Made by a program: the position numbers and the translations under genes. The notes under the pieces are model-generated. The model saw only the letters and a program-made list of their open reading frames with translations. It ran no database searches and was not told where the DNA came from. Shown here piece after piece: positions 8,152 to 52,849 of a DNA stretch of 64,000 nt (position 1 is the first letter of the stretch; each line of letters starts with the position of its first letter). This DNA is from a virus (lineage: Duplodnaviria > Caudoviricetes). The stretch spans positions 38,564 through 102,563 of IMG/VR virus record IMGVR_UViG_3300036833_000307, one strand, 5' to 3'.

Positions 8152-8297
8152 TTGCATTTCCAGTCCATGCCGCTAGACTGCATTTTGTCGGCTCGACGCG
8201 GCATGGCGCGACTTGGCCAGTCCCGGCTCGGCTTGGCAGGCACGGAGAAGCAGGACCCAGAAGCACCATGCCGCTTCCGGGTCCTGCGCTCGGTTTT
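8152..8297 (+). ncRNA. promoter-pentamer repeat-hairpin unit E1
   Basis: TTGCAT-N16-TAGACT; pentamers 8191-8245; hairpin 8250-8287; TTTT downstream. Confidence 0.65.
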
Positions 8298-8304
8298 CCG
8301 CACA

Positions 8305-8368
8305 GTGTCTTTCGCACGCCATCCTGGTGTGCGGCAGAGAGCCCGCTGTTCAACGGGTAGAAAGACAC
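8305..8368 (+). ncRNA. three-way-junction leader element, copy A (permutation III)
   Basis: gtgtcT-T-stem-CAGAGA-stem-aGAAAgacac; ATG at 8376. Confidence 0.7.
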
Positions 8369-8375
8369 CAAAAAT

Positions 8376-9197
8376 ATGTCTGATATCGTAAGGATGTTAT
8401 CGAACCCGCTGGCAAAATCCGCATCCCAAACCGATTTCTTTCTCCTTACATTGGCGGAATGTGCAAAATTCGGCGTGCCGCCGCAGGCGCTTGCGCTGCT
8501 GCGCGATGTGCATAGCATGTTGGGATATTCCAAACCGCTCGGCGAAAAACAGATCAGCGCCCTGGCTGGGCCGTTGGTGGCGTGGCGCACCGATCCCCGG
8601 CAGCCGCATTTCGAGCGCGTTGTCGATCTCGAACGGCTGGCCTTTCACCAGCGCGCGCTGATCGCCTTTGGCGGCGGCAAACCTGGCGAAATGGTGGGCC
8701 GTGCCGAGATCGTATACGCGATGGGAAATCTGCTGCACGGGACCTCGCCGCCGGAATACTACGAAGTATTCCAGTGGGCCTCCGTCGATACGCTCGCGGA
8801 GATCGAGGGAGACAGCAAGGCGAAAATCCTGGCCGACCGTGAAAAGGACGGCTGGACAGCCGTCGCCGATGCGGAAGTAACCCAGCCCGGTGGGCGGCTC
8901 TACGCCACCTACCAGGAAATCTGCACGTCGATCCGCCGCGAGGCAATCGCCGGACTGGAGCGGAACCCGGCGGGGCATCCACGCAACATACTGCGGCCAA
9001 TGGCCGCTCTGGCCATCGCCAACCATGCCCGGATCAAACAGGAACTCCTCGCCGAGGGGCGTCCCGAAGTGGTGGAGACACTCGACCGCACGATCGAACA
9101 GATCCGCGGCATGTTTCCTGGTCTTGGCTCGTTGGACGATGAGCTCAAGCGGCGCAACCAGGCCGCTCTCAACGAGGTCCTGGAAGAACTCCTGTGA
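8376..9197 (+). CDS. hypothetical early protein
   Basis: 273-aa ORF with globular composition. Confidence 0.75.
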   Translation: MSDIVRMLSNPLAKSASQTDFFLLTLAECAKFGVPPQALALLRDVHSMLGYSKPLGEKQISALAGPLVAWRTDPRQPHFERVVDLERLAFHQRALIAFGGGKPGEMVGRAEIVYAMGNLLHGTSPPEYYEVFQWASVDTLAEIEGDSKAKILADREKDGWTAVADAEVTQPGGRLYATYQEICTSIRREAIAGLERNPAGHPRNILRPMAALAIANHARIKQELLAEGRPEVVETLDRTIEQIRGMFPGLGSLDDELKRRNQAALNEVLEELL

Positions 9198-9241
9198 GCC
9201 TCGCGGATCCCGGTGCGCAAGCACCGGGTTCCGGTCCGCCA

Positions 9242-9302
9242 TCCCTATCGCCGCACTCATTGTGCGGCGGCAGAGAGCCGGCTGATACCGGCGCAAGGGA
9301 GG
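9242..9302 (+). ncRNA. three-way-junction leader element, copy B
   Basis: tcccT-A-9 bp stem-CAGAGA-gccgg/ccggc-GCAAgggagg; ATG at 9307. Confidence 0.7.
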
Positions 9303-9306
9303 CCTT

Positions 9307-9594
9307 ATGGCTAAACCAACGAAGTATCCACGCAGACTGCGGCGAACCCTCGAGAAGGTCGCCGACGGCCGGCGGGAGCGGGAAGCCAAAGCGGCGGCGG
9401 AGGACGATGTTCCACCGCTGTTCCGATCGTTCTACCAGTCAGGATTTCTGACCCAGGTGCAGACGATCCATACCCGTTTCAACGACGCGGCAACGCAAGC
9501 GACAACCATCTATCAGTTGCATCCGTTGCCGGCGAACCGGCGTATTTTCGTGCCGCCGCCGTGGATCCTAAAACCCAAAAGCGACGCGTCCTGA
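9307..9594 (+). CDS. hypothetical early protein
   Basis: 95-aa ORF, GGAGG RBS. Confidence 0.65.
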   Translation: MAKPTKYPRRLRRTLEKVADGRREREAKAAAEDDVPPLFRSFYQSGFLTQVQTIHTRFNDAATQATTIYQLHPLPANRRIFVPPPWILKPKSDAS

Positions 9595-9607
9595 GAGGGG
9601 CGCGCTG

Positions 9608-9664
9608 CTTATCCCGCAGCTTCCTGCGGGGCAGTCGAGCCGACGCTGCTCAGTCGGCGAAAGG
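9608..9664 (+). ncRNA. three-way-junction leader element, copy C
   Basis: ctT-A-8 bp stem-CAGTCGA-gccgac/gtcggc-GAAAgg; ATG at 9672. Confidence 0.65.
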
Positions 9665-9671
9665 AAACCCC

Positions 9672-9887
9672 ATGCGGAAAATCATGCGAATGATGCGCGA
9701 CGCCTGGCGGGCTGGGCGGTTGCCCGAGCCATTCAACGTACGCGCCTTTCGTACGGCCTGCCCAGGTCTCGCCGCCACGACCTACCCGACGTTCCTGGCG
9801 AAGCACGCTAAGGACAATCCGGGTGGTAACTCGACACGGTTCAAGCGTGTTTCACGTGGCTGGTACCGTTTCTACGATCATGAATGA
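9672..9887 (+). CDS. small basic protein, possibly winged-helix DNA-binding
   Basis: start MRKIM after AAAGGA; FLAKH...NP...F.RV.RG.YR. Confidence 0.65.
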   Translation: MRKIMRMMRDAWRAGRLPEPFNVRAFRTACPGLAATTYPTFLAKHAKDNPGGNSTRFKRVSRGWYRFYDHE

Positions 9888-10071
9888 TCGGGACCGCGCG
9901 CAGTGGGTCGACAACGACGAGGGCCTGTATCGCTGGTGGCGCCAACACCGCCAGAGCAAAGCCGCCTTCATTCGCGCTAACCGCGCCGAGATCGACGAGA
10001 TCATCGGCAAGATCCAACGCGGCGAACATAAGCCGCATTACCTAGCCTACCCGCCTACGCGCAAAGCGTAG
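9880..10071 (+). CDS. hypothetical phage protein
   Basis: MNDRDRAQWVDNDEGLYRWW..., overlapping the upstream gene. Confidence 0.65.
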   Translation: MNDRDRAQWVDNDEGLYRWWRQHRQSKAAFIRANRAEIDEIIGKIQRGEHKPHYLAYPPTRKA

Positions 10072-10074
10072 GCG

Positions 10075-10130
10075 CCTTTCGCACGCAGCATGCGTTGCGG
10101 CAGAGAGCCGGTCTGCCAACCGGCGCAAGG
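10075..10130 (+). ncRNA. three-way-junction leader element, copy D
   Basis: ccT-T-stem-CAGAGA-gccggt/accggc-GCAAgg; ATG at 10143. Confidence 0.7.
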
Positions 10131-10142
10131 AAACCCCATATA

Positions 10143-10364
10143 ATGGCCAGTCCATTCGACTATGACCTCGACCTCAACCTCGACGCAATGGCCGAGGAAG
10201 ACCTCGAGGCCTGCGCGAACCATCTGACAACGATGGTCGATTATTGCTCGCACAAGCTCCTGGCAATGCGGCAACGCAAGATCGGTCGCATCCAGGATGC
10301 GCTCGACAACGAGCGCGCATGCGAGCTGATCTACCAGCGCATCCCCGCCAACTGGCGGTGGTGA
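10143..10364 (+). CDS. hypothetical early protein
   Basis: start MASPF after AAGGA. Confidence 0.65.
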   Translation: MASPFDYDLDLNLDAMAEEDLEACANHLTTMVDYCSHKLLAMRQRKIGRIQDALDNERACELIYQRIPANWRW

Positions 10365-10398
10365 TCCGCGCAAAACCAACGCCTGCGCAACGCAGGCG

Positions 10399-10450
10399 TC
10401 TCTCGCTTGATTTCAAGCGGCAGAGAACCGGTCTGATCACCGGCGAAAGA
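10399..10450 (+). ncRNA. three-way-junction leader element, copy E
   Basis: tcT-C-stem-CAGAGA-stem-GAAAga; ATG at 10454. Confidence 0.7.
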
Positions 10451-10453
10451 ATA

Positions 10454-10702
10454 ATGATGAGCAACGAACGCAGCGCCGAGGCGGAGGTCCGCAATCCGCT
10501 CCTCAGCCTGCCGGCGATGCAGAAAATTCGGGCACTTCCGGCGCCGGCGCGCCAGGCGCTCGCGGAACTCCTGGTGGAGCTCCACAGCGATGCCGAGCGT
10601 CGGGCGCAGGTCGCCTGGAACCGCAGCAAAGCACCGATGGCGGCGTACTGGAAATCGGTCGCCGTCTATACGCTGCACATCCACCGGGCGCTGCGAAAAT
10701 AG
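10454..10702 (+). CDS. hypothetical helical protein of mobile-element type
   Basis: RNPLL.LP...L..L..DA..RA..AW...KAPMAAYWK.VAVY. Confidence 0.7.
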   Translation: MMSNERSAEAEVRNPLLSLPAMQKIRALPAPARQALAELLVELHSDAERRAQVAWNRSKAPMAAYWKSVAVYTLHIHRALRK

Positions 10703-10707
10703 CGCCC

Positions 10708-10767
10708 GGCTTTCGTGCAACAGCCTGTTGCACGGCAGAGAGCCGGTCTGCTCACCGGCGAAAGACC
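10708..10767 (+). ncRNA. three-way-junction leader element, copy F
   Basis: cT-T-10 bp stem-CAGAGA-gccggt/accggc-GAAAg; ATG at 10775. Confidence 0.7.
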
Positions 10768-10774
10768 CCATTCC

Positions 10775-10981
10775 ATGACCAAACCCGACAAGTCGGCCAC
10801 AGCGCGCGCGCTGGAGCGGTTTTTGCGGCATATGCTGGCCGGCAAACGGCCCGCCACGCTCAACGCCTGGCACAAGCTGGGTAATGAGTTGCAACTGGAG
10901 CCACTGCCACCAGCCGAGGAAGTCCTCGAGGTGCTGTCAGGCTTTTCACTGTCGCGCACCATGGCCGAAAAAACCGACTAA
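10775..10981 (+). CDS. hypothetical early protein
   Basis: start MTKPD directly after element F. Confidence 0.55.
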   Translation: MTKPDKSATARALERFLRHMLAGKRPATLNAWHKLGNELQLEPLPPAEEVLEVLSGFSLSRTMAEKTD

Positions 10982-11043
10982 TGCCGAACCTCGCGCTCTG
11001 CGGAGCCGAGGCTCCGGGCAATTCCGCCCGGGCAGAAGAGGCA
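10982..11043 (+). ncRNA. three-way-junction leader element, copy H (permutation II)
   Basis: tgcc-GAAC-stem-G-C-tccgggc/gcccggg-CAGAAGA-ggca; ATG at 11050. Confidence 0.7.
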
Positions 11044-11049
11044 CGACAG

Positions 11050-11241
11050 ATGAAGATCACCACCGATCTTTACACCGGGAAGCCGTTCCGCTGGAACACC
11101 ACGGTTTTGCATCGGGCACCCGACGGCAAACTTACCACCGTGCCCGCCCGCAGCACATCGCGTAGTAGTACCTGGCTGCATCCTTCACGGGTGCCGGCGG
11201 CACTGCTAGCCGAATTGAACCCGGACAAGACCAAACCCTGA
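11050..11241 (+). CDS. hypothetical small protein
   Basis: start MKITT after GAGG. Confidence 0.55.
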   Translation: MKITTDLYTGKPFRWNTTVLHRAPDGKLTTVPARSTSRSSTWLHPSRVPAALLAELNPDKTKP

Positions 11242-11242
11242 A

Positions 11243-11309
11243 CGTGCCGAACCTCGCGCCGGAAAGCGGCCGGGGTTCCGGGCAATCAAGCCCGGGCAGA
11301 AGAGGCACG
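11243..11309 (+). ncRNA. three-way-junction leader element, copy I (permutation II)
   Basis: cgtgcc-GAAC-stem-G-T-tccgggc/gcccggg-CAGAAGA-ggcacg; ATG at 11315. Confidence 0.7.
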
Positions 11310-11314
11310 ATCAA

Positions 11315-12067
11315 ATGTCGAAATCTGTCGCTCCGCGTCAGCCTCTCGATGAGCTGGCGCGGGCGTTGAACTCGTTCGACCACCGCCACCGCATCGACGA
11401 GATCTTTTTCAACTGGCTGGAAATGAGCGCGATCGCGATCTCCAACGCGGTCGACCGGGCTCAGTACGACAAACGCGAGGCCCGCTACATGGCCATCGTC
11501 GGCAACTATTCGCGCGACGAGGCGCAACTGCTGGCCGAGATGACGGGCATGCTCTGGCTCGCGATCGCCAGAGGCGGTGCCCCGCTCAGCGAGCTGATGA
11601 CCAGGCTCGAGCTTGGCAGCAAGGCGATGAAGAGCCGGCTCGGCCAGTTCTACACGCCATTCAACGTTTCCTACATGATGGCGAAAATGCTGCTCCAGCC
11701 ACGCGACCAACTGGTCGAAGAGATTAAGGCGAAGGGCTACGTCACCATGATGGAGCCCGCATGCGGTGCCGGCGGTATGGTGCTTGCGTTCGCACAGGCA
11801 TTCGAGGAAGCCGGGTTCAACCCCCACACTCAACTGTACGTTGCCGCGGTCGACATCGATCAGGCCGCAGTGCACATGACCTATCTGCAGATTGCGATGC
11901 TCAGCATTCCCGCTGTCGTCTTCCAAGGCGATAGTCTTCGCGTCAACACTTCGGCGCACTGGCTGACCCCGGAATATGTTTCCGGCCGCTGGAACCTCCG
12001 CCTCAACGGCGAGACACCCAAGCCGGTTCCCGGGATTGCCCGCTGGAGCATCCGCCAGCAGATATGA
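11315..12067 (+). CDS. orphan N-6 DNA methylase family protein (short HsdM-like)
   Basis: GQFYTP, MEPACGAGGM, VDID and GDSL motifs; no NPPY-type catalytic motif visible. Confidence 0.8.
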   Translation: MSKSVAPRQPLDELARALNSFDHRHRIDEIFFNWLEMSAIAISNAVDRAQYDKREARYMAIVGNYSRDEAQLLAEMTGMLWLAIARGGAPLSELMTRLELGSKAMKSRLGQFYTPFNVSYMMAKMLLQPRDQLVEEIKAKGYVTMMEPACGAGGMVLAFAQAFEEAGFNPHTQLYVAAVDIDQAAVHMTYLQIAMLSIPAVVFQGDSLRVNTSAHWLTPEYVSGRWNLRLNGETPKPVPGIARWSIRQQI

Positions 12068-12069
12068 CC

Positions 12070-12111
12070 AAACCCCCGAGGCTTCGCGCCTTGGGGGTTT
12101 TATTTTATTTT
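12070..12111 (+). terminator. intrinsic terminator
   Basis: AAACCCCCGAGGC/GCCTTGGGGGTTT stem followed by a T-rich tract. Confidence 0.85.
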
Positions 12112-12312
12112 GCACTGTTGCGTGGGAGGGGTAAACCGGAGTAAGCTGGCTGATCCTGATAGGAAGTCGGCTGATGTCGTTCCTGTTGTCCCGCCCGGGT
12201 TATCCCCCAGCTTATTCGTCCTGGCCCATCGCCGCGAAAACCCGTCACACCAATATAGACTACGGGAGCACGGAGGTTGGCTATGCCCGAACCACGACGG
12301 CGGTCGGGGCGG

Positions 12313-12456
12313 ATGACCATTCGCGAGGCGACGGTCGAGGTCGCGACTATGTTGCTCGGCACCGCCATCGGGTTGGTTATCGTCCTCGGCTTGGCTTACT
12401 GGTTAGGTCGCCACTTTCTCGTGGCCTTCCTGGGCGCCGTATCCGGACACTACTAG
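12313..12456 (+). CDS. 47-aa putative membrane peptide (below the ORF-track size cut-off)
   Basis: manual translation MTIREATVEVATMLLGTAIGLVIVLGLAYWLGRHFLVAFLGAVSGHY*. Confidence 0.4.
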   Translation: MTIREATVEVATMLLGTAIGLVIVLGLAYWLGRHFLVAFLGAVSGHY

Positions 12457-12500
12457 TCCGGGTACGGTGTTCCATCGTTTATGTGGTCTATGAAAATGTT

Positions 12501-12660
12501 TTGAGTTTAGTGGAAGATCGGCTAAGCTGTAGGCGCGGCTCGTCTAAGCCCGACATGGCAGGCTCGGCAAGACAAGGCACGGCGGGGCTCGGCATGGCCG
12601 GGCTTGGCAGGCGCGGCCTATGGACCCGGAGGAAACCTGCCTCCTCCGGGTCTTCGCTTG
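12501..12660 (+). ncRNA. promoter-pentamer repeat-hairpin unit E2
   Basis: TTGAGT-N16-TAAGCT; pentamers 12533-12616; 10-bp hairpin 12623-12652. Confidence 0.65.
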
Positions 12661-12690
12661 TACCCTTCGCTTCGATCGGAGGTTTGAGCA

Positions 12691-13494
12691 ATGAGTGAAG
12701 ATCCAACATTGCCGAGGTTCTTCCCGCCGGAGGGTGCGCCGAAGGTCATCCAAGCCATTGTCGAAGTCATGCGGAACATCCCGGCGGTTCCCAAAAGTGG
12801 CCGCAATCTGGAGCAAAAATATAACTACGTCGAAGCAACCGTCCTGACCGCAAAAATCCAGGATGCGATGATCAAGGCCGGCCTCGTTCTGGTGCCACGC
12901 GAGCTTTCGCGTTCAGTACAATCCGGTATTCTGTTTATTCGTTTTGCCTTTGATGCGCACAGTGGCGATCAGTCGATTTTTGCCATCGGAAATTTTACCG
13001 GAGCATGTCGTTTCCAGTTTCAGCGTAGTGGCGCGTTTGACGACAAAGCGGCAAATAAATGCCTCACGACCGCGCTTAAACAATTCGAAATCGCATTGTT
13101 TAAAATCCCGGCTGATGTTGCCGATATAGAACGGGATGAAGAGGTGCGCGAACCTTCGGGACGCGGCGACGGCCGAGACAACCCGCCCGATGAACCGCCG
13201 GATGACCGGCCGCCGCCGCACGACACCGCACCAGATGACCAGCCACCCAGCGATGATGGCCCGCCGGACGACGAGCCTGTCGGCGATGCCGAACCGGGCG
13301 ACGAAGCTCCAGTCGACTTCCAGACCCGGGTGCGCGAATTCGCCCAGCGGCTGAAGACGGCGCAGAACCAACGCGAAGCCGACGCGCTGTGGAGCGACGA
13401 AGCGGTCATGCTACGACAGTGCAATGACACCACGTATCGCTGGCTGGCCGATGCCTACGAAGGCCGCTGGAATATCCGTCCCCCGAAAGTATGA
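12691..13494 (+). CDS. ERF-family single-strand annealing recombinase
   Basis: VPKSGRN..QKYNY...K....M...GL...DKA.NK..T.ALK...LF.IP; adjacent to ssb. Confidence 0.75.
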   Translation: MSEDPTLPRFFPPEGAPKVIQAIVEVMRNIPAVPKSGRNLEQKYNYVEATVLTAKIQDAMIKAGLVLVPRELSRSVQSGILFIRFAFDAHSGDQSIFAIGNFTGACRFQFQRSGAFDDKAANKCLTTALKQFEIALFKIPADVADIERDEEVREPSGRGDGRDNPPDEPPDDRPPPHDTAPDDQPPSDDGPPDDEPVGDAEPGDEAPVDFQTRVREFAQRLKTAQNQREADALWSDEAVMLRQCNDTTYRWLADAYEGRWNIRPPKV

Positions 13495-13509
13495 GGAGAG
13501 GAACAAGCT

Positions 13510-14109: not shown

Positions 14110-14133
14110 TCTCCCTGCCGCAACAACATAGCC

Positions 14134-14851: not shown

Positions 14852-15087
14852 TGCCGCGCTGGTCTGAGGTCGTCACCATCACCCTGCCGGACGGCACACA
14901 GGCTCAAGCCATCGTCTGTGGCAGCGGCAAGCGTCCGCGTACGCCGCGCTGCCGCTGCGGCCGGACGTCGAGCATCCAGTGCGACTTTCCGCTGCTGGAT
15001 GGCAAGACCTGCGACCAACACCTGTGTCGCTCCTGCGCCGTCCCGGTCGGGCGCAACCGCGACTACTGCCCCGAGCATCCACGGTGA
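14851..15087 (+). CDS. Cys-rich Zn-finger protein
   Basis: CRCG...CD...TCD..LC..C...DYCPEH. Confidence 0.65.
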   Translation: MPRWSEVVTITLPDGTQAQAIVCGSGKRPRTPRCRCGRTSSIQCDFPLLDGKTCDQHLCRSCAVPVGRNRDYCPEHPR

Positions 15088-15479
15088 GTACCACCCGCCG
15101 CACCCCTCGTTACGAGGACGTCCAGCCGGTCAAGGACCTCGTCACCAACGAGGAGATGTACGAGGCGATGGTCTACATGGACCAGAGCCCGCACGACTAT
15201 GCCGAGGCGGTCGCTGACGCTGAGTACGCCGCGTACAAAATCCGCATGGCCGAGGCAGTCGGCATCCTCGTGTCGGGCGAACGGAACGCCGCCCGCCAAC
15301 AAGCTGATGCCCGCACCTCGCAAGCCTATGCCAACGCCGTTGAGGACAACCGCCGCGCGCAGATGCAAGCCGAGATGATGAAAGCCAGGCGCGCCGCTGC
15401 ACAGTTGAAAATCGAGGTATGGCGAACCCTTCGCGCCGACCAACGCGCCCGGGATGTGTCCGAACCAGGAAGTAGATGA
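15084..15479 (+). CDS. coiled-coil protein, possibly a recombination accessory factor
   Basis: GTG start coupled to the upstream stop; Ala-rich helical ORF ending IEVWRTL. Confidence 0.55.
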   Translation: MSTTRRTPRYEDVQPVKDLVTNEEMYEAMVYMDQSPHDYAEAVADAEYAAYKIRMAEAVGILVSGERNAARQQADARTSQAYANAVEDNRRAQMQAEMMKARRAAAQLKIEVWRTLRADQRARDVSEPGSR

Positions 15480-15490
15480 TGACGCGTGCG

Positions 15491-15638
15491 AAAAGGGCTC
15501 TCCAGCCTAAGCCGAAGAGCCCCGTGCCGCGTCCGGCGTTGCCACGTCCTGCCAAGCCTCGTCTCGCCGCAGCATGTCATGCCTGGCCGTGTGTGGCATA
15601 GGCACATCACGATATGCCACATTTTTTATCCTTGGCAA
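15491..15638 (-). ncRNA. promoter-pentamer repeat-hairpin unit E3 (antisense to flanking genes)
   Basis: minus strand: TTGCCA-N16-CATATC (or N18-TATCGT), pentamers about 15587-15523, hairpin 15522-15495, TTTT. Confidence 0.65.
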
Positions 15639-15648
15639 CGGTTCGCTG

Positions 15649-16253: not shown

Positions 16254-16279
16254 ACCCTATATAATAAGCCGCAACGATC

Positions 16280-21529: not shown

Positions 21530-23608
21530 TCAGCGTCGCCAGGAGTGCTGTGGCCGGTCCTGATAGCCTCGCTCCAGGTCGAAGGTCGCGCTGTTGGCGA
21601 ACAGCCACTCGCACGCCGCGGCGTAGTCGGGGTCGATCCGCGCCGCTTCGGCCAGCACCGAGTTCATCAACTCGGCGTACTGCCGGATATCGCCTGGCGG
21701 CCAGGGCGAGCCGTCCGCGAGCACGAAGCCATGCTGGTTGGGTCGTGATGGATCGGCGCTCTGACCGCGCTCGCCGGTCAACTCCTGTGATTGTTCCCAG
21801 GTGCCACCGGCCCAGTACCAGTTGTAGCAAAGCCCGTTAGCGGGATTGTACTGCCCGTGCGCGGAAAACCGCTCGGTGATGTATGGCTTGAGCTTGTCGA
21901 GACAGTCGCGTGCCTGCGGCAGCCTCATGCGGATCGCGCGGATCAGCGTCGAGAGGTAGTAGTCCTGCTGCCACGGCGCCATGGCCGGCGGTGTCTCGGA
22001 GCCGTAGACGCCAGGGATGCTCAATTGCGCCTCGGTTGCGGTTTTTTCCAGCGTCTTCAGCCGCGTGAAGTTGTCCTGCACCATCGGCGCGAACACCGCC
22101 GACATTGCCGGCGAGATGTAGGCGCTGTCGATAAGCTGGCGCAGCGACCAAGCTTGCGAGCGCACCTGGATGTCGCCGCCGTAGACACCTTTCTCGTTGC
22201 CGCGCGAGCCGGGCGGCACCCACATGATGGCCCAGCCCGCCTGCGCGTCCAGCATATCGAGCCGATGCCGGTCGCCGGTCAGGAGATACGGCAGGTAATG
22301 CGCGTCCGGCTGATGGCCGGCTTCCGGCGACCAGCCGGTTCCCGCGGTGTCGATCGGCTGGGTCAGTCCGCCCTGCGCTGCGCTCTGGCGCGGATCGGCC
22401 CACAGCAGCGGGCGATCTTGCGGGTTGAGCCAACGGTAGTGCTCGATGTCCCACAGGTGCCACGGACAGGAACCCGCTGCGTCCGACATCGCCACCGCGT
22501 AGGCGTAGGCGCGCGGGTCCTGTGAGATGAGCCAGGCGGCGTTCCACAGCGGGTCGGGGCCGATGTCCGGCCGGCCGCCGCCGGCGCCCATGTACATCGC
22601 GAAATCGCCCGGACCCAGGGGATCGAACTTCGGTCCGTCGCACGGCTTGGCGAGCACCGCTTCGGCGACCGGACCCGGGCCGTAGACGTGCACCGCGCCA
22701 GAGGCCTCGAGCGCGGCGCGATCGTGGGCGATGAAATGCCCTGGCGCATCGCCGATCCAGTACGTGTGGTGCCAGATCTGGTATTGGTGGTGCGTCAGCG
22801 GCCCGACGGCATAGACCTGCTGACCATTTGCGGTGAGCGCCATGGTATAGGTCTGCGCGCCGCCTTCCGGTCCCATCGCGCCGTCGTTGCGGAAGCCGAA
22901 GACGATGCGGACAGTATCGTCTTGGTAGCGGCGGATATCGATTACCAGCCGCATAGCCGCGTGCACCGGCAGCACGTAACGCGTCTCGCTGGCGGACGAT
23001 CCCTCGAAATACATGCTGCCTGGCCCGCTGGCGAGGATCTGGTCGAGATCGAAGACCATGGGACCGTCATTGAAATCGAGCGTCAGCACCACGGATTTAG
23101 GCAACGGTCCGATGCCTACCATCGTCCCAGCCGATGCTGGATCAGCAAGGCTGAGTTCTACATCGTGGCTCTCGCCAGGAGCCAATGCGGGAGCGGCGAT
23201 AGTGATCGCGCCATGGCGGACGGTGCCGTCCTCATGAACCATCAATGGATTGAGTTGTTGGCCGGCGATGCCGGCGCCGGCTGGCACCTGACCTGGCGCA
23301 AACGGCAACGCGAAAGTCAACAGTCGCTCAGCGATCGCAGCAGGACCGATATTGCGCAGTCGCAGAGTTGCCAACGTGGCACCCGGCACTGGCGGCAGTT
23401 CGGTATCCGGCGGCTGCTCTCCCGGTGGGACAATCGGGCCCGGATGGCCGGGCACCGGCGGTATCGGGTGCTCCGGGTGCAGCGGCGGCTGCGGTGGCTC
23501 TGGTTCCGGTTTTCCGCCACCTGGCGGATGTTCCGGATGCGGCGGATGCTCCGGATGCGGCGGATGCTCGTCGGGTTTGCTTGTGTCGGGCTTGGTGGGC
23601 TTGGCCAT
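21530..23608 (-). CDS. large enzyme-like protein, possibly a polysaccharide-lyase-type fold, with Pro/His-rich N-terminus
   Basis: HPPHPE repeats; TFALPFAPGQVP and DGTVRHG N-terminal region; aromatic-rich helical C-terminus (HQP..YLPYLLTGD, QVRSQAWSLR). Confidence 0.5.
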   Translation of the reverse strand: MAKPTKPDTSKPDEHPPHPEHPPHPEHPPGGGKPEPEPPQPPLHPEHPIPPVPGHPGPIVPPGEQPPDTELPPVPGATLATLRLRNIGPAAIAERLLTFALPFAPGQVPAGAGIAGQQLNPLMVHEDGTVRHGAITIAAPALAPGESHDVELSLADPASAGTMVGIGPLPKSVVLTLDFNDGPMVFDLDQILASGPGSMYFEGSSASETRYVLPVHAAMRLVIDIRRYQDDTVRIVFGFRNDGAMGPEGGAQTYTMALTANGQQVYAVGPLTHHQYQIWHHTYWIGDAPGHFIAHDRAALEASGAVHVYGPGPVAEAVLAKPCDGPKFDPLGPGDFAMYMGAGGGRPDIGPDPLWNAAWLISQDPRAYAYAVAMSDAAGSCPWHLWDIEHYRWLNPQDRPLLWADPRQSAAQGGLTQPIDTAGTGWSPEAGHQPDAHYLPYLLTGDRHRLDMLDAQAGWAIMWVPPGSRGNEKGVYGGDIQVRSQAWSLRQLIDSAYISPAMSAVFAPMVQDNFTRLKTLEKTATEAQLSIPGVYGSETPPAMAPWQQDYYLSTLIRAIRMRLPQARDCLDKLKPYITERFSAHGQYNPANGLCYNWYWAGGTWEQSQELTGERGQSADPSRPNQHGFVLADGSPWPPGDIRQYAELMNSVLAEAARIDPDYAAACEWLFANSATFDLERGYQDRPQHSWRR

Positions 23609-23634: not shown

Positions 23635-23775
23635 TTGACGGGACTGCTAAAATCTGGCACACATGAATGTGCCAGGCAGGCCGGGCTCGGCATGACGTGG
23701 CACGGTGCGGCGCGGCTGGGCTCGACATGGCATGGCCCGGCAGGCACGGGACCCTCCGGCTTCGGCCGGAGGGTC
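23635..23775 (+). ncRNA. promoter-pentamer repeat-hairpin unit E4 (antisense to flanking genes)
   Basis: TTGACG-N17-CACACA; pentamers 23671-23749; perfect 11-bp stem with TTCG loop at 23750-23775. Confidence 0.7.
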
Positions 23776-24460
23776 ATTGCAGCCGCAGGATCGCATGCGT
23801 TGCGTCAGCGGCAGGCATGACGATGGTAAAGGTTCCTGATGCGACTTGTTGGCGGCCACCGAAGTCGCCGGCATAGATCGCTCTGCCGCTGCCCGTAGTA
23901 CTGGCGCCGCTGGCGCCACCGAGGCGAGGATTGACACCGGAATTGTAAATTATGCAGCCATCGCTATCAATTGTGGCACTGGTCCAACTGATGGTGCCGC
24001 CAAAGCTGACGAACGCGGTAGAGCCGGCCACAGCGGGCGAGACGTTGCTGAGCCCCAGGCCGCCCGCGGCGTAGCCAACGCCGACCACCTCATCGACGTT
24101 GCTGGTGACATCGGCGTAGTTCACCGACGCCGCGCCGTAGGTGCCAACCGGAGCGTGCCGGATCAGCGCAATCCGGAACACATCGCCGTTGAAGCTCAGC
24201 GCGACGCCGGTCGCGGTGGCGGTAGCGTTCGGATAGATCTTGATCGCCGTGGCGCTGGTGATCTGCGAGACGATGCAGCCGACCGGGATCCCGGGGCCCG
24301 AAACGCGCATTCCGACGCTGATCCCGACCATGCTAGCGAGCGTATCGACAATATCATTGCTATAAGTGTTGCCGGTCGTGTTCACGGTGCCGCCGAAGCA
24401 ATGGGCGCCGGCGAACAGCTCGGACTTGAAACTGGTCGGCATCGCGGTGGTGATTGCCAT
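23774..24460 (-). CDS. putative virion structural / tail-associated protein
   Basis: start MAITTAM.TSFK.EL; C-terminal DFGG.....GTFTI..P....AILRL. Confidence 0.7.
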   Translation of the reverse strand: MAITTAMPTSFKSELFAGAHCFGGTVNTTGNTYSNDIVDTLASMVGISVGMRVSGPGIPVGCIVSQITSATAIKIYPNATATATGVALSFNGDVFRIALIRHAPVGTYGAASVNYADVTSNVDEVVGVGYAAGGLGLSNVSPAVAGSTAFVSFGGTISWTSATIDSDGCIIYNSGVNPRLGGASGASTTGSGRAIYAGDFGGRQQVASGTFTIVMPAADATHAILRLQ

Positions 24461-24473
24461 TGGACTAGCTCCC

Positions 24474-24965
24474 TCAGGCGGCAGCGGCGGCCACAGGCGG
24501 CTCTGGCAAGTCCGGCAGCCCATGAACCCGGCGATAAGCCAGACCGGCCTCCAGCCGCGTCCTGTCGGCGTGCCAGAGACGTTCGATGTGACGGATGTGG
24601 CGGATGTGGTCGGTCACCACCTGACGGATCGCGTCGATCACCTCGGGACCGCCGATATGGCCTTCCCAGGGTGTGCCAGCGGCGGTCGCCTGCAGTTCGG
24701 CGAACAGGTGGCCGAAATCCGGATGGCCGTCGAGTTCGGTGGCAAAGCAGGCTGCGGCGTCGTCGCGCAGCGATTTGCGTTCCGCCTCCTGGATCGCTTG
24801 GTAATGCTCGGCCAGCACCTCGAGCAGCCGGCCGCGCAGAATGATGCCCTGCGACTGATGTTCGGCCGGGATGCCGTCGAGCGGGATGAGGTCTTCGCAG
24901 GTGACACGAGCCCAGTCGGCGGCGGCGTGGGGTCCGCCGGGAGTTGCCAGCACGCGGTTGTACAT
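24474..24965 (-). CDS. hypothetical protein
   Basis: coupled ORF, GGAGG RBS. Confidence 0.6.
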   Translation of the reverse strand: MYNRVLATPGGPHAAADWARVTCEDLIPLDGIPAEHQSQGIILRGRLLEVLAEHYQAIQEAERKSLRDDAAACFATELDGHPDFGHLFAELQATAAGTPWEGHIGGPEVIDAIRQVVTDHIRHIRHIERLWHADRTRLEAGLAYRRVHGLPDLPEPPVAAAAA

Positions 24966-30380: not shown

Positions 30381-31529
30381 CTAGGCCACGTTCTGGATGC
30401 CAAACGTCACGTGCGTGGGACTGATCGCGTAATAGCTCACGATGTCATAGGCGTTCGGCGCCGTCGTCAGTGCGCCGGCCAGGCCGCCGAGCGGAAACCA
30501 GCTCGAGCCGAAGGTCAGCGTGCGGCTGCCGATGGCATCCTGACGCACTGCGATGTTACCATTGTCGCCGGCCATGCAATTCGCCGGATTGGCCATGGCG
30601 CGGTTGCCGCCGAGCGTCACGGTGAAATTGTTGCCGAGATTGAAGTCGATGAAGATCGAGGCGGCATCGGTCAGTGTTACCGGCGGCGTGTGCTGTCGTG
30701 CGGTCCAGGTGTTTACCGCCGATAAGACCGGCTGTCCGCCATCGCCGGTGCGGCTGAAGGAAAAGCCGAGCACCGCGCCGTTGCTGAACGGTGCGGTGGC
30801 CGAGGCGCCGATCGGAGTGACGGCGAATTCGCGATAGCCGGGCGGCGCAAACCGGTGGGTCAGGTTGAACAGTATCCACTGCGCCGTATTGATGGTGTTC
30901 CACAGCCTGATCTGGCCCATCACCGTGCTCGAGGACGCGTCCAGCGTGTCCAGCACCGAGGTCCAGTCGGTGCCGTTGTAATCCAGCAGGTCCATGTAAA
31001 TCGCGGTCGCGGCGTTTTGCGCGGTGACGTTGTTCAGCCGCAGCTTGCCATTGCCGGGATCGGCATTGGCGATCGAAGTGGCATCGAACGCGGTGAGAAT
31101 GGTGATGGCGCCGCCCGCAGCGCCGGCAGCGCCGGCAGCGTAGGCGGTGACGTTGCTGCCGTCCGATTGCAGCATTGCCGCCGAGGACGGCGGCAGCGTC
31201 GCCACCGCACCGGATGTTCCACCGACCAGCAGCGACCAGGCGGTCGACTGGTTCTGCACCATGAACACGCGATACGCCGGCAGGCCTCCGGTGGGCGTCA
31301 GCTGCGGAATGGTCAGCTTCTGCAGGTTGGCCGTCAGCCCGCTGCAGATGAATACCTGGAAGCGGCTGAACTGGGTGAAGCTCAGTGCCACCGGGCCGGA
31401 CGCGAAGCTGACCAGGAGCTGGGCGTTGAACGCCGCCTCGAGGGCGACGAAGTCGTCGTTGATCGCCGGCACCTTGTCGATCTGCGTCGGTGCGAGCTGC
31501 GGAATTTCGAGGATCGGGCTCACAGCCAT
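30381..31529 (-). CDS. putative tail fibre / receptor-binding protein
   Basis: ADPGNGKLRLNN; C-terminal TLGGNR...QDA.GSRTL.F module; located after the tail-tip genes. Confidence 0.65.
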   Translation of the reverse strand: MAVSPILEIPQLAPTQIDKVPAINDDFVALEAAFNAQLLVSFASGPVALSFTQFSRFQVFICSGLTANLQKLTIPQLTPTGGLPAYRVFMVQNQSTAWSLLVGGTSGAVATLPPSSAAMLQSDGSNVTAYAAGAAGAAGGAITILTAFDATSIANADPGNGKLRLNNVTAQNAATAIYMDLLDYNGTDWTSVLDTLDASSSTVMGQIRLWNTINTAQWILFNLTHRFAPPGYREFAVTPIGASATAPFSNGAVLGFSFSRTGDGGQPVLSAVNTWTARQHTPPVTLTDAASIFIDFNLGNNFTVTLGGNRAMANPANCMAGDNGNIAVRQDAIGSRTLTFGSSWFPLGGLAGALTTAPNAYDIVSYYAISPTHVTFGIQNVA

Positions 31530-31548: not shown

Positions 31549-31705
31549 AAAAGTCCCGGTCAAGCGCTCTGCCTGCCGGGACCCTTGCCGCGCCTGCCAC
31601 GTCGTGCCTCGTCTCGCCATGCCTTGGCGAGCGATGCCCCGCCCAGCCTGCCATGCCAGGTTTTATGCGGCCCATCATGCTATATCCTTTTATCGGCACC
31701 GTCGA
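31549..31705 (-). ncRNA. promoter-pentamer repeat-hairpin unit E5
   Basis: minus strand: TCGACG-N17-TAGCAT; pentamers about 31660-31584; hairpin 31582-31553; TTTT. Confidence 0.65.
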
Positions 31706-47473: not shown

Positions 47474-47509
47474 GGGGTTTCCCTCCGCGTTGGTGGCGGG
47501 ACTGAACCA

Positions 47510-47716
47510 TCACTCGTCCGTGTGGGCAAGGGCATTGGCTGCCTCGCGGTGCCGGCGCAGGTAGTAGACCATCTCCTCTAGCTTGGTCTTGGCGATCGCG
47601 AGATGCGTCGTCCGGCCGGCCTGGGCGTTGCAGAAGGCCAGCGCCCGGGCCTTGAATTCATCGATGTCGTCGTGGCCGGGCTGGCGGATTGTGCCTCGGC
47701 CGGTGCTGTCGCTCAT
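47510..47716 (-). CDS. small helical protein, Acb2/Tad1-like hairpin candidate
   Basis: HLAIAKTKLEEMVYYL. Confidence 0.45.
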   Translation of the reverse strand: MSDSTGRGTIRQPGHDDIDEFKARALAFCNAQAGRTTHLAIAKTKLEEMVYYLRRHREAANALAHTDE

Positions 47717-47720
47717 GATT

Positions 47721-48344: not shown

Positions 48345-48653
48345 TCACGACCGTCCTGGCCGCGCGCGAACGTCGTCGGTGGGCGCCAGTTGGTTGATCT
48401 CCTCGATCGAGAGCGGCTTGCGCCAGTTCACCGAGATCGGCCGCCGCCCGATCGCCGCGATCGCCACCTCGTCCGGCAGGACCTCCTCGAACAGCGGATC
48501 GTCAGTGGTGCCGAGATGACGCATGATGCGGTCGCGGACATGCTCGACACGGCGCCGGATGGTCGGGCTCCAACGGAGCACCGGCAAGGGGGCTTCCGGA
48601 CGTTGAACCGCAAGGCTCAACTGCCATAACGGGCGCCCCCCCGCGTAGCGCAT
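48345..48653 (-). CDS. hypothetical protein
   Basis: 102-aa ORF in operon. Confidence 0.5.
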   Translation of the reverse strand: MRYAGGRPLWQLSLAVQRPEAPLPVLRWSPTIRRRVEHVRDRIMRHLGTTDDPLFEEVLPDEVAIAAIGRRPISVNWRKPLSIEEINQLAPTDDVRARPGRS

Positions 48654-48894
48654 TCATTCCATTCCGAGATTGACAGTGAGGCAGGCGGAGAGATCACGTT
48701 CCTCCAGCCAGTAATGGCCGCCGATGATCTGGCGCTCAGGATCGTAGACCGGATGGGCGAGGGCGAAGCGGGCATGGACGTGCATCGGGTGCGCTCCTGT
48801 GGTCTGCTGGCGCATGGAACCGTGGCTGCTGGTGCTGCTGGCCTTCCTGATCGGCTGCCTGATCGGTGCCGGCGGGATGGCATTATACGGCATG
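48654..48894 (-). CDS. hypothetical protein (start uncertain)
   Basis: fills the gap in the minus-strand operon. Confidence 0.35.
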
Positions 48895-48931
48895 GTTGAC
48901 CGGCCACACTGGTGGCATCGGTACTGACCAC

Positions 48932-51010
48932 TCAAGTCACCAAGACCTGCGGGTTGACCCAAACGGTGGCCGCGAGCCTGCCCAGCCGCACTTGAGCGCG
49001 CAGGCGGCCGGCTTGCTGCGGCGTAAAAACCACCTGTAGGTGTTGGACGGTTGGTGGAAAACCCGACGTGAAGCCCGCCGGCACGGCGCCTGAGAAGGCG
49101 CTCCCGCCGAAGTTGGCGGTGGCATTCAAGCCCGCGGTGCTGGCGGCGTTGGCGAATAGTCCGAATAAGGGCAGCAAGGAGGACTGGATCGAGACGATGG
49201 ATAGGCCGCCGACACCGGTCGCCGGATTAGCTGTACCGCTGGCGTTCCAGTTGCCGGAGGGTGCGACACGAAACCAGATGAGGCTGTTGGTGAGATCGAC
49301 CGCAACGGCGATAACGTCGCCGTTCGCTCGGACACCGAGGTTGGCTGTTGTTTGATTGACGCCGTTGATCCAGACGTTGCCGTTGCCTCCTTGGACGAAG
49401 GCGGCGTTGAATGGGGAGGCTCCCACCGTTCCGAGAGCAGCATTAGGGTTGGCAACCCCAACGCCTATGCTGGTGGTCCAATTGGTGCAGCTGTATTCGA
49501 AGTAGTATTTGCCCGACGTTTGTCCTGCCGTAGTGCGGACCGCGCCCGTCGCGGCGCCAGTTGTCGCCGTAAGGTTGTTTGTTCCGCTCAAGGTGATGTT
49601 CAACAGGTCGGCTGGGTTCCATGTTAGCAGCGGTGGGTTGTTCCACGCCGCTGTCGATGTCGGCAGCGCCGCGAGCGCGGTCAGTGCGGACGGCAGGCTG
49701 AAGCCGAATGCCGCCAGCGACGAGCCAGCGGTTGCCTGATATTCTAGCGCAAGACTGATATCGATGTTGTTCAGCGTGGCTAACGAGAGGATCTCGATCG
49801 TTGCGGTGCGGAGTGTGCCGACCAGCGTGTTCTCAACGTCGAACCAGAAGGTGTCGAGTGTGCCGACCCAAGGGCCGACGTTGGTGTTCGATACCAACTT
49901 CAGGGAATAGAGACCAACGTCGTCCTGGGCGCCTCCGACCATTGTGACGGTGGTGTCGGTGTTGATGTCGCCATAGGCTGTGTGGCGCTCGGAGAAGATG
50001 TGCGTGCCGTCGTAGCAGTTGACTAGTTCGATTTCGTCCTGCAAACCGCCGGACCCTGGTCCGCCGTAACGTGTGACGCTTGGTGCGATCCGGCAGCTAT
50101 CCAGCAGTACTTTTTGCGTAGCAGTGTTGCCCGGAGTTGCTACCAGGGCCGTGGTGAGGGCGCTTAAATCAACCCCGCGGCAGGTGACTGCCGGCGTGAA
50201 GAGCGAGAATAGACTAGTCGGAAAGGTTGCGCCCTGGAGGGCCGCCGATGTGTTGAGCCAAGAAAAATCCAACAGATAGCTGGTGGATTGAATTCCCTGG
50301 CTGGCGGCGCCGAATTGCACTGTGGTGTTGTCGAAGACAACGTGTCCAGGATTGTTGAAATGAATGCCTAAGGCGGTAGCGCCGAGGATAATCGAGCAGT
50401 TCTTTAGGTAGTTGGTTTTGACGCCGAAGTTGTTGAAAGCGAATGTCCCGGTCCCGCTGAGGTTGAAGGTAATCCCCTGCCAATAGTTGTTGACGTAAGC
50501 ATCAATATAGAGGGTGGCGGTGGTTGTTCCGATTATGCTTGCCCCCGACAGTTGGTCGGCCGCCGCTGGTGGCACGCTGCCGGCTCGGTTAACCGAGATA
50601 ACCTCGATAACGCCTGGTGCCGGAGTGCTAAAGCCGTAGGTGCTGCCGCCCGACGTGGTGGTTTCTGAATGGTCGCTCGATAGAAATGCCCTATCCCCCG
50701 CCACAAAGCGGTTGTTGCCGCCGTTGCCGAGGCTGACCAGGCTTCCCGCCGCTGCACCCCAGCCGTAGGCCGATTGGCCCGAGACGTTGGCGAACGTGGC
50801 GCCGCCGGAGGCGATGGTGACGTTGTTGCCAACAGGCCAAGCTGGTTCGGTAGCTGCCGACGTGCCCGCTACCGTGCAGCGAAACACATACATCGCGTTA
50901 ACCGCCTGGGCCGTGAGCGGGCGAATGATCTGCCCGACGGTATAGGCAGTCGAGATGGCGAACTGCGGAAGCGCTGCGTAAGCCGCACTCGAAACGAACC
51001 AGTCGGCCAT
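48932..51010 (-). CDS. tail-associated protein (beta-helix-like) with inserted SPRY-like domain
   Basis: GGAGG RBS; N-terminal YTVGQIIRP..FRC..AGTS..TEP.WP module; SPRY-like block 49052-49627. Confidence 0.7.
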   Translation of the reverse strand: MADWFVSSAAYAALPQFAISTAYTVGQIIRPLTAQAVNAMYVFRCTVAGTSAATEPAWPVGNNVTIASGGATFANVSGQSAYGWGAAAGSLVSLGNGGNNRFVAGDRAFLSSDHSETTTSGGSTYGFSTPAPGVIEVISVNRAGSVPPAAADQLSGASIIGTTTATLYIDAYVNNYWQGITFNLSGTGTFAFNNFGVKTNYLKNCSIILGATALGIHFNNPGHVVFDNTTVQFGAASQGIQSTSYLLDFSWLNTSAALQGATFPTSLFSLFTPAVTCRGVDLSALTTALVATPGNTATQKVLLDSCRIAPSVTRYGGPGSGGLQDEIELVNCYDGTHIFSERHTAYGDINTDTTVTMVGGAQDDVGLYSLKLVSNTNVGPWVGTLDTFWFDVENTLVGTLRTATIEILSLATLNNIDISLALEYQATAGSSLAAFGFSLPSALTALAALPTSTAAWNNPPLLTWNPADLLNITLSGTNNLTATTGAATGAVRTTAGQTSGKYYFEYSCTNWTTSIGVGVANPNAALGTVGASPFNAAFVQGGNGNVWINGVNQTTANLGVRANGDVIAVAVDLTNSLIWFRVAPSGNWNASGTANPATGVGGLSIVSIQSSLLPLFGLFANAASTAGLNATANFGGSAFSGAVPAGFTSGFPPTVQHLQVVFTPQQAGRLRAQVRLGRLAATVWVNPQVLVT

Positions 51011-51051
51011 GTCTCAGACCTCCCGCGCGGCCCGGCTGCGTCAGACCGGGC

Positions 51052-52254
51052 TCAGGCGAGACTGTCCTGGATCATGAAGGTGCTCATGACGCCGTTCGGC
51101 TCGAAGGTGACGTTCTCCAAAGCGGTGAAGTTGAAGGTCTGGATCAGCGCCATGTCGCTATCCGATTTGGTCGAGCCCATCAGCTTCACCCTGGGCATGA
51201 CGAAGTTCATGAAATCGGCGCTCGGCCCCGAACCCATAGTTAGCATGAGGGTGACGGCCACCTCGGTCTCGTTCAGGAACGTGTTGAACATCACCTCGTC
51301 CATGAACAAGGCGGTCATGTTGCCGGTGACGCGGAAGCGACCCTGAAAGATATGCGGCACGATGTTCGACCCGACCACCGGATCGGCGCCCAAGGCGCCG
51401 TTCAGCTGGATGTTCATGCCGGTGATGATGGCGACATCGGCATTGTTGTATTCGACCAAGCCGTTCACCGCGGCGAGTGAGGTCGAGGTCGTGGTCGGTG
51501 CCGGCGAGGTCAGCTGCTGGGTGAGCGACTGGATCATGTTCATGCCGATCACCTGCGAGGAAAAAGTGACCAGGCCAGTGGCCGGCAGCGCGATCGCAGT
51601 CTGCCCGAATTTGCAGCCGACGAACAGTTCACTTTGGCCGATGTCGGAGAAGTAGTGCTCGATCGAGTAGCTCTTGTAGAGCGCGCCGATCGGCGGCATC
51701 GATATCTTCCTGCCGACCACCGAGACGGTGATACCGGCGAGCGATCCCGCCGTGAGACCAATGATCTTGCTGATGTCACGGCTAGTGATCACCGTATCGG
51801 TCAGCGTGTTGATCCTGAGGTTGACGGTATTGATCGCGGCATTCGGCGCTCCCGCCCCGCTGATCCGGAACACGTCATGGCGCTTGAAGCCGGCGGCGAG
51901 CAGGCCGCCTGCGCCCAGCGTCAGCGTGCCGGCCACCGGATCGAGCGTGAAAGTGGATGGCCCCATGGTCACGCCGGCGGCAAAGTTATTGCGCAGGATG
52001 CCCTGCCAGAAGTCGTTGAACGACCCGGGCGAGACCTGGCCGGCGAAGGTGCCCTGCGGGCGGTGCACGCCATGGCGGGCGTCACGGATCTGCTGGGAGA
52101 CCAGGATTTCCTGGCTCTCGTAGGTATCCTTGTTCATCGCCAGGTCGGAGGACACGCGCCGAAGGTATTTGCCGCCGGTGATCGGGTTGGTGCCTTCTGC
52201 CGTCTCTTCGGCGATGGCTACTTGTTTTGCTACGCCAGTTGCGAATGTCGGCAT
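51052..52254 (-). CDS. major tail tube protein
   Basis: LRRVSS.L...KD.Y.S.EI...Q..DARHG; SYSIEH; position between neck and chaperone genes. Confidence 0.85.
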   Translation of the reverse strand: MPTFATGVAKQVAIAEETAEGTNPITGGKYLRRVSSDLAMNKDTYESQEILVSQQIRDARHGVHRPQGTFAGQVSPGSFNDFWQGILRNNFAAGVTMGPSTFTLDPVAGTLTLGAGGLLAAGFKRHDVFRISGAGAPNAAINTVNLRINTLTDTVITSRDISKIIGLTAGSLAGITVSVVGRKISMPPIGALYKSYSIEHYFSDIGQSELFVGCKFGQTAIALPATGLVTFSSQVIGMNMIQSLTQQLTSPAPTTTSTSLAAVNGLVEYNNADVAIITGMNIQLNGALGADPVVGSNIVPHIFQGRFRVTGNMTALFMDEVMFNTFLNETEVAVTLMLTMGSGPSADFMNFVMPRVKLMGSTKSDSDMALIQTFNFTALENVTFEPNGVMSTFMIQDSLA

Positions 52255-52266
52255 CGCCTGTCTCCG

Positions 52267-52701
52267 TCAGCTAGGGGGCTCGTGGGCGAACCAGGAAACT
52301 TGCACCGGCAAATTGATCCAGTCGTTCCATGGCACCGCCGCCGGCACGGTGACCGCGACGACGATGACCAAGACCCCCTGCGGGGTGGTGACCGAGTGGC
52401 CGCGCGGGTAGGCTGCCAGCACGGCGCTGGCGATTTCGTTCTGCAGCCGCGTACCGGTATCGCGCGGCACCATGACGCTGACCTGGAACGTTCCGGTCCA
52501 TTCCTGAACGGCGTCGGCACCGACGCCCATCGGCCGGCGCAGGCGGGCCGCCATTTCGGGACGGATATAGGGCCGTCCCTTGGCCGGAACGTACGTCTTC
52601 TCTGGCCACGCGATCTGCGTGTCAGGGTTGATACCTGGAATGCTCGCGGCTGCCAGCAGGCTGTTCAGCACGTCATCGAAAAATCTGAGTTGGATGCTCA
52701 T
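52267..52701 (-). CDS. tail terminator protein
   Basis: start MSIQL at 52701; IAWP...Y.P....YIR; G.FQVSV..P..G. Confidence 0.75.
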   Translation of the reverse strand: MSIQLRFFDDVLNSLLAAASIPGINPDTQIAWPEKTYVPAKGRPYIRPEMAARLRRPMGVGADAVQEWTGTFQVSVMVPRDTGTRLQNEIASAVLAAYPRGHSVTTPQGVLVIVVAVTVPAAVPWNDWINLPVQVSWFAHEPPS

Positions 52702-52710
52702 GGGATGGCT

Positions 52711-52849
52711 GGCGGGCGCCGTAGCGCCCGCCCCGTGCCATGCCTTGCCAGGCTTGCCACACCGAGCCCCGCCCAGCCACGCCGCGTCTTGTCGCGCCGG
52801 GCCCTGCCACGACACATAGAAGTGTGCCTAGTTTTACTCATCGCGTCAA
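52711..52849 (-). ncRNA. promoter-pentamer repeat-hairpin unit E6
   Basis: minus strand: TTGACG-N17-CACACT; pentamers about 52812-52733; 9-bp hairpin 52732-52711. Confidence 0.7.

Follow-up and report, generated by a model that had tools for sequence, protein, structure and literature searches.

The DNA analysed here, called the window below, is a stretch of 64,000 nucleotides (bases 38564-102563) of the 102,563-bp IMG/VR virus record IMGVR_UViG_3300036833_000307, a member of the Caudoviricetes with direct terminal repeats and a GC content of 63%. Between its genes lie six units (U1 to U6, Table 1), spread over about 45 kb, in each of which a promoter-like module is followed by an array of degenerate pentamers, a G(G/A)C triplet plus two variable bases (NN), and by a GC-rich hairpin. 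We consider these units, with a probability of roughly 85%, to be stand-alone genes for the guide RNAs (vrRNAs) of VIPR, a phage system resembling CRISPR whose first description dates from 2026 (bioRxiv 10.64898/2026.04.26.720920). This reading is based on the anatomy of the repeats, on a gene for the Cas7-like protein Vipr in the same genome, and on matches of the guides to genes of related phages under the base-skipping rule of VIPR. The kind of RNA is already known since the 2026 preprints and is not a new RNA class.

The published parts of VIPR are the Cas7-like Vipr, an accessory protein, Vap, and vrRNAs composed of 9-16 GGY-NN repeats with a structured tail (bioRxiv 10.64898/2026.04.26.720920). 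In the published systems, the NN dinucleotides pair with double-stranded DNA, every third target base being skipped, and the natural targets are competing phages and satellites. According to the published structures, Vipr protomers polymerise along the vrRNA, each of them holding a GGY (bioRxiv 10.64898/2026.04.26.720927), and "staggered" arrays with 1-nt overlaps have also been described (bioRxiv 10.64898/2026.04.26.720920, fig. S18). For comparison, we used three relatives of the present phage, G001, G002 and G003, which were found by peptide-pattern searches with neighbour genes. G001 measures 104.6 kb; about 57% of the present genome aligns with it, at about 73% nucleotide identity, and it carries its own vipr-partner-array locus as well as dispersed arrays, its Vipr being 63% identical to the present one over the full length. 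Neither vipr nor arrays were found in G002 and G003, both of which are incomplete records.

The positions and strands that a sequence-only reading had given for the six units were confirmed by direct reading and by a period-5 scan (threshold: G[GA]C in at least 7 of 10 pentamers), which detected exactly six arrays in the window, none elsewhere in it, and none in 20 Markov-shuffled versions of the complete genome. When parsed by dynamic programming, the arrays contain 10-18 units each, where about 11-17 pentamers had been counted before; with a lower threshold, the parse adds chance-level runs only, and nothing else in the window qualifies as a credible array. Among 79 pentamers, G occupies position 1 and C position 3 in 96% each, and position 2 holds G (77%) or A (18%; 95% together), so that the triplet is GGC in 71% and GAC in 18%; all 16 dinucleotides are present at positions 4-5. 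Each of the six units terminates, as had been proposed, in GGC[AG]CGG, and the hairpins that follow (-23.5 to -34.5 kcal/mol, z -2.7 to -5.8) differ from one another in sequence, with TTTT on their 3' side in U1, U3 and U5. The architecture had thus been described correctly; what had been overlooked are slips of register within the arrays, at 4-nt GGCA steps that split them into runs of about 9-13 pentamers, and three arrays outside the window, which bring the number in the whole genome to nine, the main one included. General searches contributed little: Rfam at gathering thresholds gave no match, no tRNAs were found, Tandem Repeats Finder detected only fragments of the arrays, and a 15-kb megablast query found nothing in the GenBank phage collection.

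With regard to transcription, the hexamers and spacers quoted in the sequence-only reading are literally there, including TAAAA in four of the spacers, but a generic sigma-70 scan finds the promoter of U3 only, and its hits are not enriched relative to shuffled sequence. On the two strands of the 102.6-kb genome, the composite T[TC]G[AC]C[GA]-N5-12-TAAAA occurs four times in all, always immediately upstream of an array, and similar modules precede arrays in G001 too. A generic terminator scan with a T-run rule recovered none of the six hairpins. The flanking genes, which were defined by open reading frames, GC content at third codon positions (GC3), and PHROG or tblastx matches, place U3 and U4 antisense to both of their neighbours, as had been stated. 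Given their own conserved promoter-like module, their own hairpin and the antisense position of these two, the units have the appearance of small RNA genes with transcription of their own. In the present phage and in G001, the putative -10 and start region of several vrRNA units is overlapped by a palindrome, GGCACA-N5-6-TGTGCC (23657-23674 and 52827-52810 of the window, among related sites), which could be an operator or the 5' stem of the RNA.

The core VIPR locus lies 10-12.7 kb upstream of the window start, with the Cas7-like gene 11.8 kb before it, and the six units are located 19-65 kb from vipr. The Vipr protein has two RGRPPK (AT-hook-like) repeats at its N-terminus and no Pfam match; its family comprises at least 1,227 uncharacterised proteins. 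The top Foldseek matches of its AlphaFold2 model (pLDDT 75) are exclusively Cas7/Csm3/Cmr RAMPs, with a probability of 0.99, and the family profile matches one PDB sequence only, that of the SUSP1 Vipr protein (E 2e-4), in the glycine-rich C-terminal part. The probable partner is a Cas7-like protein of the phage itself and not TRAP or CsrA, from the analogies drawn earlier; genes for TRAP (TrpBP, PF02081) and CsrA (PF02599) were absent from the phage genome, whereas control genomes were positive. The stop of vipr is overlapped by a 173-aa partner gene, a candidate vap, which is conserved beside vipr in G001, has no Pfam match and matches only a PHROG of unknown function; the main array follows. 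A hairpin whose loop is ACGGTTCACCG or a close variant of it interrupts this array twice, and a hairpin with this conserved loop ends the arrays near vipr in both the present phage and G001.

To identify targets, we applied the published caller logic (two bases paired, one skipped) to single-register pentamer runs and used 1000 shuffled guides per unit as the null. Five of the six guides (U2-U6) match a relative better than shuffled guides do, with p 0.024 once and p <=0.001 in the other four. The two positions of each pentamer that had been regarded as free are therefore not free, since the NN match genes of related phages under the 1-nt-skip rule. In these five guides, the relative's allele is matched at 77-91% (also given as 75-91%), compared with 65-77% in the phage's own genome; a skip of 1 nt outscores skips of 0, 2 and 3 nt in all five, and the skipped base is the wobble position of the codon at five of the six sites. 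Each of the five rival sites is orthologous to the guide's best nearby site in its own genome, and the phage's own copies of the matched genes lie 0.07-1.2 kb from each guide, the own-allele site of U5 being only 73 nt away. These own alleles differ from the guides at 5-9 of 18-26 paired positions, so that the phage would escape its own guides. The targets of U3 and U4 are a 166-aa and a 249-aa gene, respectively, both of unknown function, and the 382-aa target gene of U5 adjoins a tail-fibre gene. The matches of all six guides are compiled in Table 1.

Table 1. Units, arrays, core locus and guide matches. Positions are those of the window unless marked "genome"; fractions are matched over paired positions, and the column of shuffled guides gives how many of 1000 reach the score in the relative.
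Feature	Position	Strand	Parts or gene	Match in own genome	Best match in relative	Shuffled guides	Skipped base
U1, candidate solo vrRNA gene	8152..8297	+	TTGCAT (8152-8157), 16-nt spacer, TAGACT (8174-8179); scan array 8180-8249; ten pentamers 8190-8239; terminal GGCAGGCACGG 8235-8245; hairpin 8250-8287; TTTT 8294-8297				
U1, own partial match	8841..8869	-	273-aa gene 8376-9197(+)	16/20	15/20 in G001	366/1000 (p 0.37)	wobble
U2, candidate solo vrRNA gene	12501..12660	+	TTGAGT, 16-nt spacer, TAAGCT; scan array 12546-12625; 18 units 12532-12619, two GGCA junctions (5 + 9 + 2); hairpin 12622-12653				
U2, own allele	11387..11412	-	N6-methyltransferase gene 11315-12067(+)	13/18	15/18 in G001, site 6604	24/1000 (p 0.024)	wobble
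U3, candidate solo vrRNA gene	15491..15638	-	TTGCCA (15638-15633), 16-nt spacer, CATATC; scan array 15509-15598; 13 pentamers 15588-15524; hairpin 15523-15494, then TTTT				
U3, own allele	15360..15397	+	gene 14979-15479(+)	17/26	20/26 in G001, site 3238	1/1000 (p 0.001)	wobble
U4, candidate solo vrRNA gene	23635..23775	+	TTGACG, 17-nt spacer, CACACA; palindrome GGCACA..TGTGCC; scan array 23669-23758; GGCA 23675-23678; 13 pentamers 23679-23743; terminal GGCAGGCACGG; hairpin 23750-23775				
U4, own allele	23936..23973	-	gene 23774-24523(-)	17/26	22/26 in G002, site 8735	0/1000	not wobble
U5, candidate solo vrRNA gene	31549..31705	-	TCGACG, 17-nt spacer, TAGCAT; scan array 31589-31653; 15 units 31657-31585, two GGCA junctions; hairpin 31582-31553; TTTT 31552-31549				
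U5, own allele	31498..31526	+	codons 2-11 of 382-aa gene 30381-31529(-)	15/20	17/20 in G001, site 92876	0/1000	wobble
U6, candidate solo vrRNA gene	52711..52849	-	TTGACG, 17-nt spacer, CACACT; scan array 52744-52828; 15 units 52808-52735; hairpin 52732-52711				
U6, own allele	53039..53070	+	tail-completion (Neck1) gene 52846-53265(-)	17/22	20/22 in G001, site 66732	0/1000	wobble
Core VIPR locus	genome 25908-28544 (L131:1408-4044)		vipr, overlapping partner gene, 253-unit array				
vipr	L131:1408-2259		284-aa protein				
Main array	genome 27306-28544	+	253 units, 1.24 kb; outside the window				
Array	genome 34856-35051	-	40 units, just before the window; same promoter module, canonical tail hairpin				
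Array	genome 37977-38035	-	12 units, just before the window	15/18, unique best match, about 230 bp away			

The guide of U1 behaves differently. No better target was found for it in the three relatives, and an exact scan of IMG/VR with its target pattern gave 0 matches; its own 16/20 site is the unique best match in the whole genome. The gene that holds this site has no IMG/VR homologue by peptide patterns, and tblastx finds a 64% identical copy in G001.

The closeness of the guides to their own partial matches bears on a second explanation, in which the units are cis-acting autoregulators and a vrRNA with Vipr partially represses the gene next to it in the phage's own genome by imperfect pairing, for instance to time its expression. 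For U1, U5, U6 and the 12-unit array just before the window, that is, four of nine dispersed guides, the unique best match in 205 kb (both strands) is no more than 1.5 kb from the guide, and so is a tied-best match for U3 and U4, where chance would place the best own match so close for about 3% of guides; in G001, the best own-genome match is within about 0.4 kb for four of the nine dispersed guides parsed. The own matches of U1 and of the array before the window are at or above the published 80% threshold, and the site of U5 covers codons 2-11 of the gene directly downstream. We nevertheless regard autoregulation as unlikely, given that no guide has a match in its own genome above the shuffled-guide null, that five of the six match the relative's allele better than their own, and that the published surveys report no self-targets at or above 80%. 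It could also operate alongside the targeting of rivals.

The comparison with G001 extends to the units themselves, since orthologues of two of them (U1 and U4) were found there, with the scaffold 83-88% identical and the NN 46-65%. In the orthologue of U1 (G001 10010-10078, minus strand), the promoter hexamers are kept, the GGC scaffold is identical at 25 of 30 positions and the NN at 13 of 20; in that of U4 (G001 100323-100377, minus strand), the corresponding values are 30/34 and 11/24, and the hairpin is near-identical. Promoter hexamers, GGC columns and the GGCAGGC end are kept in both. In the reverse direction, a guide of G001 (30885-30939, minus strand), at the vipr-proximal end of its main array beside the partner gene, matches the present vipr at 20 of 22 positions (genome 26430-26461, vipr codon 175, in frame, with the skip at the wobble position), compared with 18/22 for G001's own vipr. 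From these alignments, our results suggest that the relatives target each other's VIPR systems reciprocally. The segment between the hairpin of U1 and the next gene (window 8298-8375), which consists of CTTTC, a hairpin, GGCAGAGAGCCCGCTGT and then GAAAGACAC, is nearly identical in G001 despite diverged flanks.

In the mechanism that we propose, each unit would be transcribed from its own promoter-like module into an RNA of about 75-130 nt, made of 10-18 G(G/A)C-NN pentamers, the terminal GGC[AG]CGG and the GC-rich hairpin, which probably acts as a terminator or as protection of the 3' end. By the published VIPR work, the phage's own Vipr would polymerise along the repeats, gripping each G(G/A)C and displaying the NN; these dinucleotides may then, by analogy, pair with double-stranded DNA, with every third base skipped, and silence transcription, presumably that of rival phages during co-infection. 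Of the features that define a vrRNA, the following are found here: tandem 5-nt units with hypervariable NN, although the triplet is G(G/A)C and not strictly GGY; a Cas7-like Vipr gene in the same element, although outside the window; and 1-nt-skip matches to other mobile elements with no strong self-target, the own match of U1 being borderline. Part of the sequence-only reading survives in this account. Autonomous small RNAs coated by an oligomeric protein remain probable, judged by sequence, and the idea that the triplets are bound one by one agrees with the published Vipr protomers; the sequestering role is not supported, the likely function being RNA-guided recognition of DNA and not the titration of a host factor.

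Several observations weigh against vrRNA genes as the explanation. The site of U4 is the sole exception to the skip at the wobble position, U1 is without a target, and its own match of 16/20 equals 80%, the published threshold for a hit. The matches to rivals are imperfect (77-91%), and the comparison comprises only three related genomes. The evidence for promoters is weak in that the -10 hexamers are poor sigma-70 matches. Lastly, all six units of the window lack the tail hairpin with the ACGGTTCACCG loop, although in VIPR the 3' tail is invariable within a clade, and with such non-canonical ends their loading onto Vipr is not assured.

These unusual 3' ends are among the points in favour of another explanation, according to which the units are decoys that soak up an oligomeric protein, such as the Vipr of a rival phage. 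Solo vrRNAs encoded by satellites that redirect the VIPR of a helper phage to decoy sites have been published, and G001 does have a Vipr of its own. A pure sponge needs no specific NN, yet the NN match orthologous rival genes in codon register with p <=0.001 in four guides, and with neither a TRAP nor a CsrA gene in the genome, we consider decoys quite improbable. It is very improbable, too, that the units are leader or attenuator elements that control read-through into downstream mRNAs as in the TRAP or nut/put systems. U1, U2, U5 and U6 do each immediately precede a gene of the same strand (U2 precedes an Erf-like gene at 12691-13494, and U6 a tail-terminator gene), and three hairpins are followed by TTTT; however, U3 and U4 have no downstream gene on their strand and are antisense to both neighbours, the same repeats form the 1.24-kb array behind vipr, and attenuation gives no reason for the matches of the NN to rival genes. 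The alternative of the sequence-only reading, in which a DNA-binding protein would recognise double-stranded sites at two motifs per helical turn, has next to no probability: the 5-bp period alone speaks for it, and it leaves unexplained the strand polarity, with the G-rich strand always after the promoter-like module and before the hairpin, as well as a scaffold that is conserved while the NN vary and matches that obey the rule of an RNA guide. We also rejected two-quartet G-quadruplexes, which would not explain the conserved C and the GAC units; Chi-like or Rho-related sites, since the orientation tracks local promoters and not the genome ends; translated pentapeptide repeats, in view of the stop codons and a conservation period of 5 and not 3; and terminase or origin sites, in view of the nine copies.

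If the six units are vrRNA genes, the placement of guides beside the phage's own diverged alleles leads us to the tentative proposal, to which we give slightly less than even odds, that a guide and its adjacent immune allele form a linked killer-rescue cassette. The guide would silence relatives that carry the sensitive allele, and tight linkage would keep the immune allele with the guide in recombinants. In phage populations, these cassettes would drive the replacement of alleles, and the linkage would explain why the guides are scattered rather than placed in the main array. More generally, that guides adjoin the phage's own escape alleles suggests a way for guide and immunity to stay together. 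The guides match ordinary genes of closely related phages (among them tail genes, a methyltransferase gene and, for the guide of G001, vipr), which suggests competition between near-identical phages in co-infection.

Compared with staggered VIPR systems, the present one shares vipr with a partner gene, pentamers of triplet and NN, GGCA junctions with 1-nt overlap, and 1-nt-skip targets in other phages that are mostly in codon register, without strong self-targets. It differs in its G(G/A)C scaffold, where the published one is GGY, and in having dispersed units, each with its own promoter-like module and an idiosyncratic hairpin instead of the conserved tail of the clade. The solo vrRNAs of VIPR-null phages and F5 satellites (bioRxiv 10.64898/2026.10.15.759431) resemble the six units in having no adjacent vipr, in matching themselves less well than their rivals, and in a conflict between close relatives with guides directed at the rival's vipr. 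Those solos, however, are found at a deleted vipr-vap1 locus or in satellites and rely on the Vipr of another element, whereas the present ones belong to a phage with its own Vipr and are scattered, each 0.07-1.2 kb away from the diverged copy of its target that the phage itself carries. In the VIPR preprints and in word searches of the literature, we found no solos scattered in a VIPR-positive genome, none with their own promoter and terminator, and none next to an escape allele of their target in the same genome. The published surveys used 20-kb windows around vipr, and sets of guides and targets would have been undercounted if scattered solos are common. Independently, our results reproduce the 1-nt-skip rule in an environmental phage of high GC content, distant from the E. 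coli and Pseudomonas models.

With the CRISPR crRNAs of type I and type III, which are bound by Cas7 filaments, the system has in common a RAMP filament, fixed steps with periodic unpaired bases, and a programmable guide against mobile elements; unlike CRISPR, it is encoded by a phage, has no repeat-spacer array and no adaptation genes, and uses a 5-nt unit with two paired bases. The TRAP-bound trp leader and the CsrB/RsmZ RNAs likewise have triplets at a spacing of about 5 nt, each bound by one subunit of an oligomer, but the present motif is G(G/A)C and not (G/U)AG or GGA, its spacer bases carry target information, and the proposed function is guidance instead of titration or attenuation.

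Divergent from U4 is a 692-aa gene whose 5' end contains an 18-bp tandem repeat (GGCGGATGCTCCGGATGC, 2.6 copies; window 23523-23569). Outside the present genome, a scan for seven consecutive GGCNN units found arrays in at least 120 IMG/VR viral contigs with GC contents of 37-76%, which indicates that such arrays are widespread. Among the matches listed, some contigs (such as L012) have tandem units of array plus hairpin, and in some from AT-rich phages (such as L024 and L035) the array lies directly before a ribosome-binding site.

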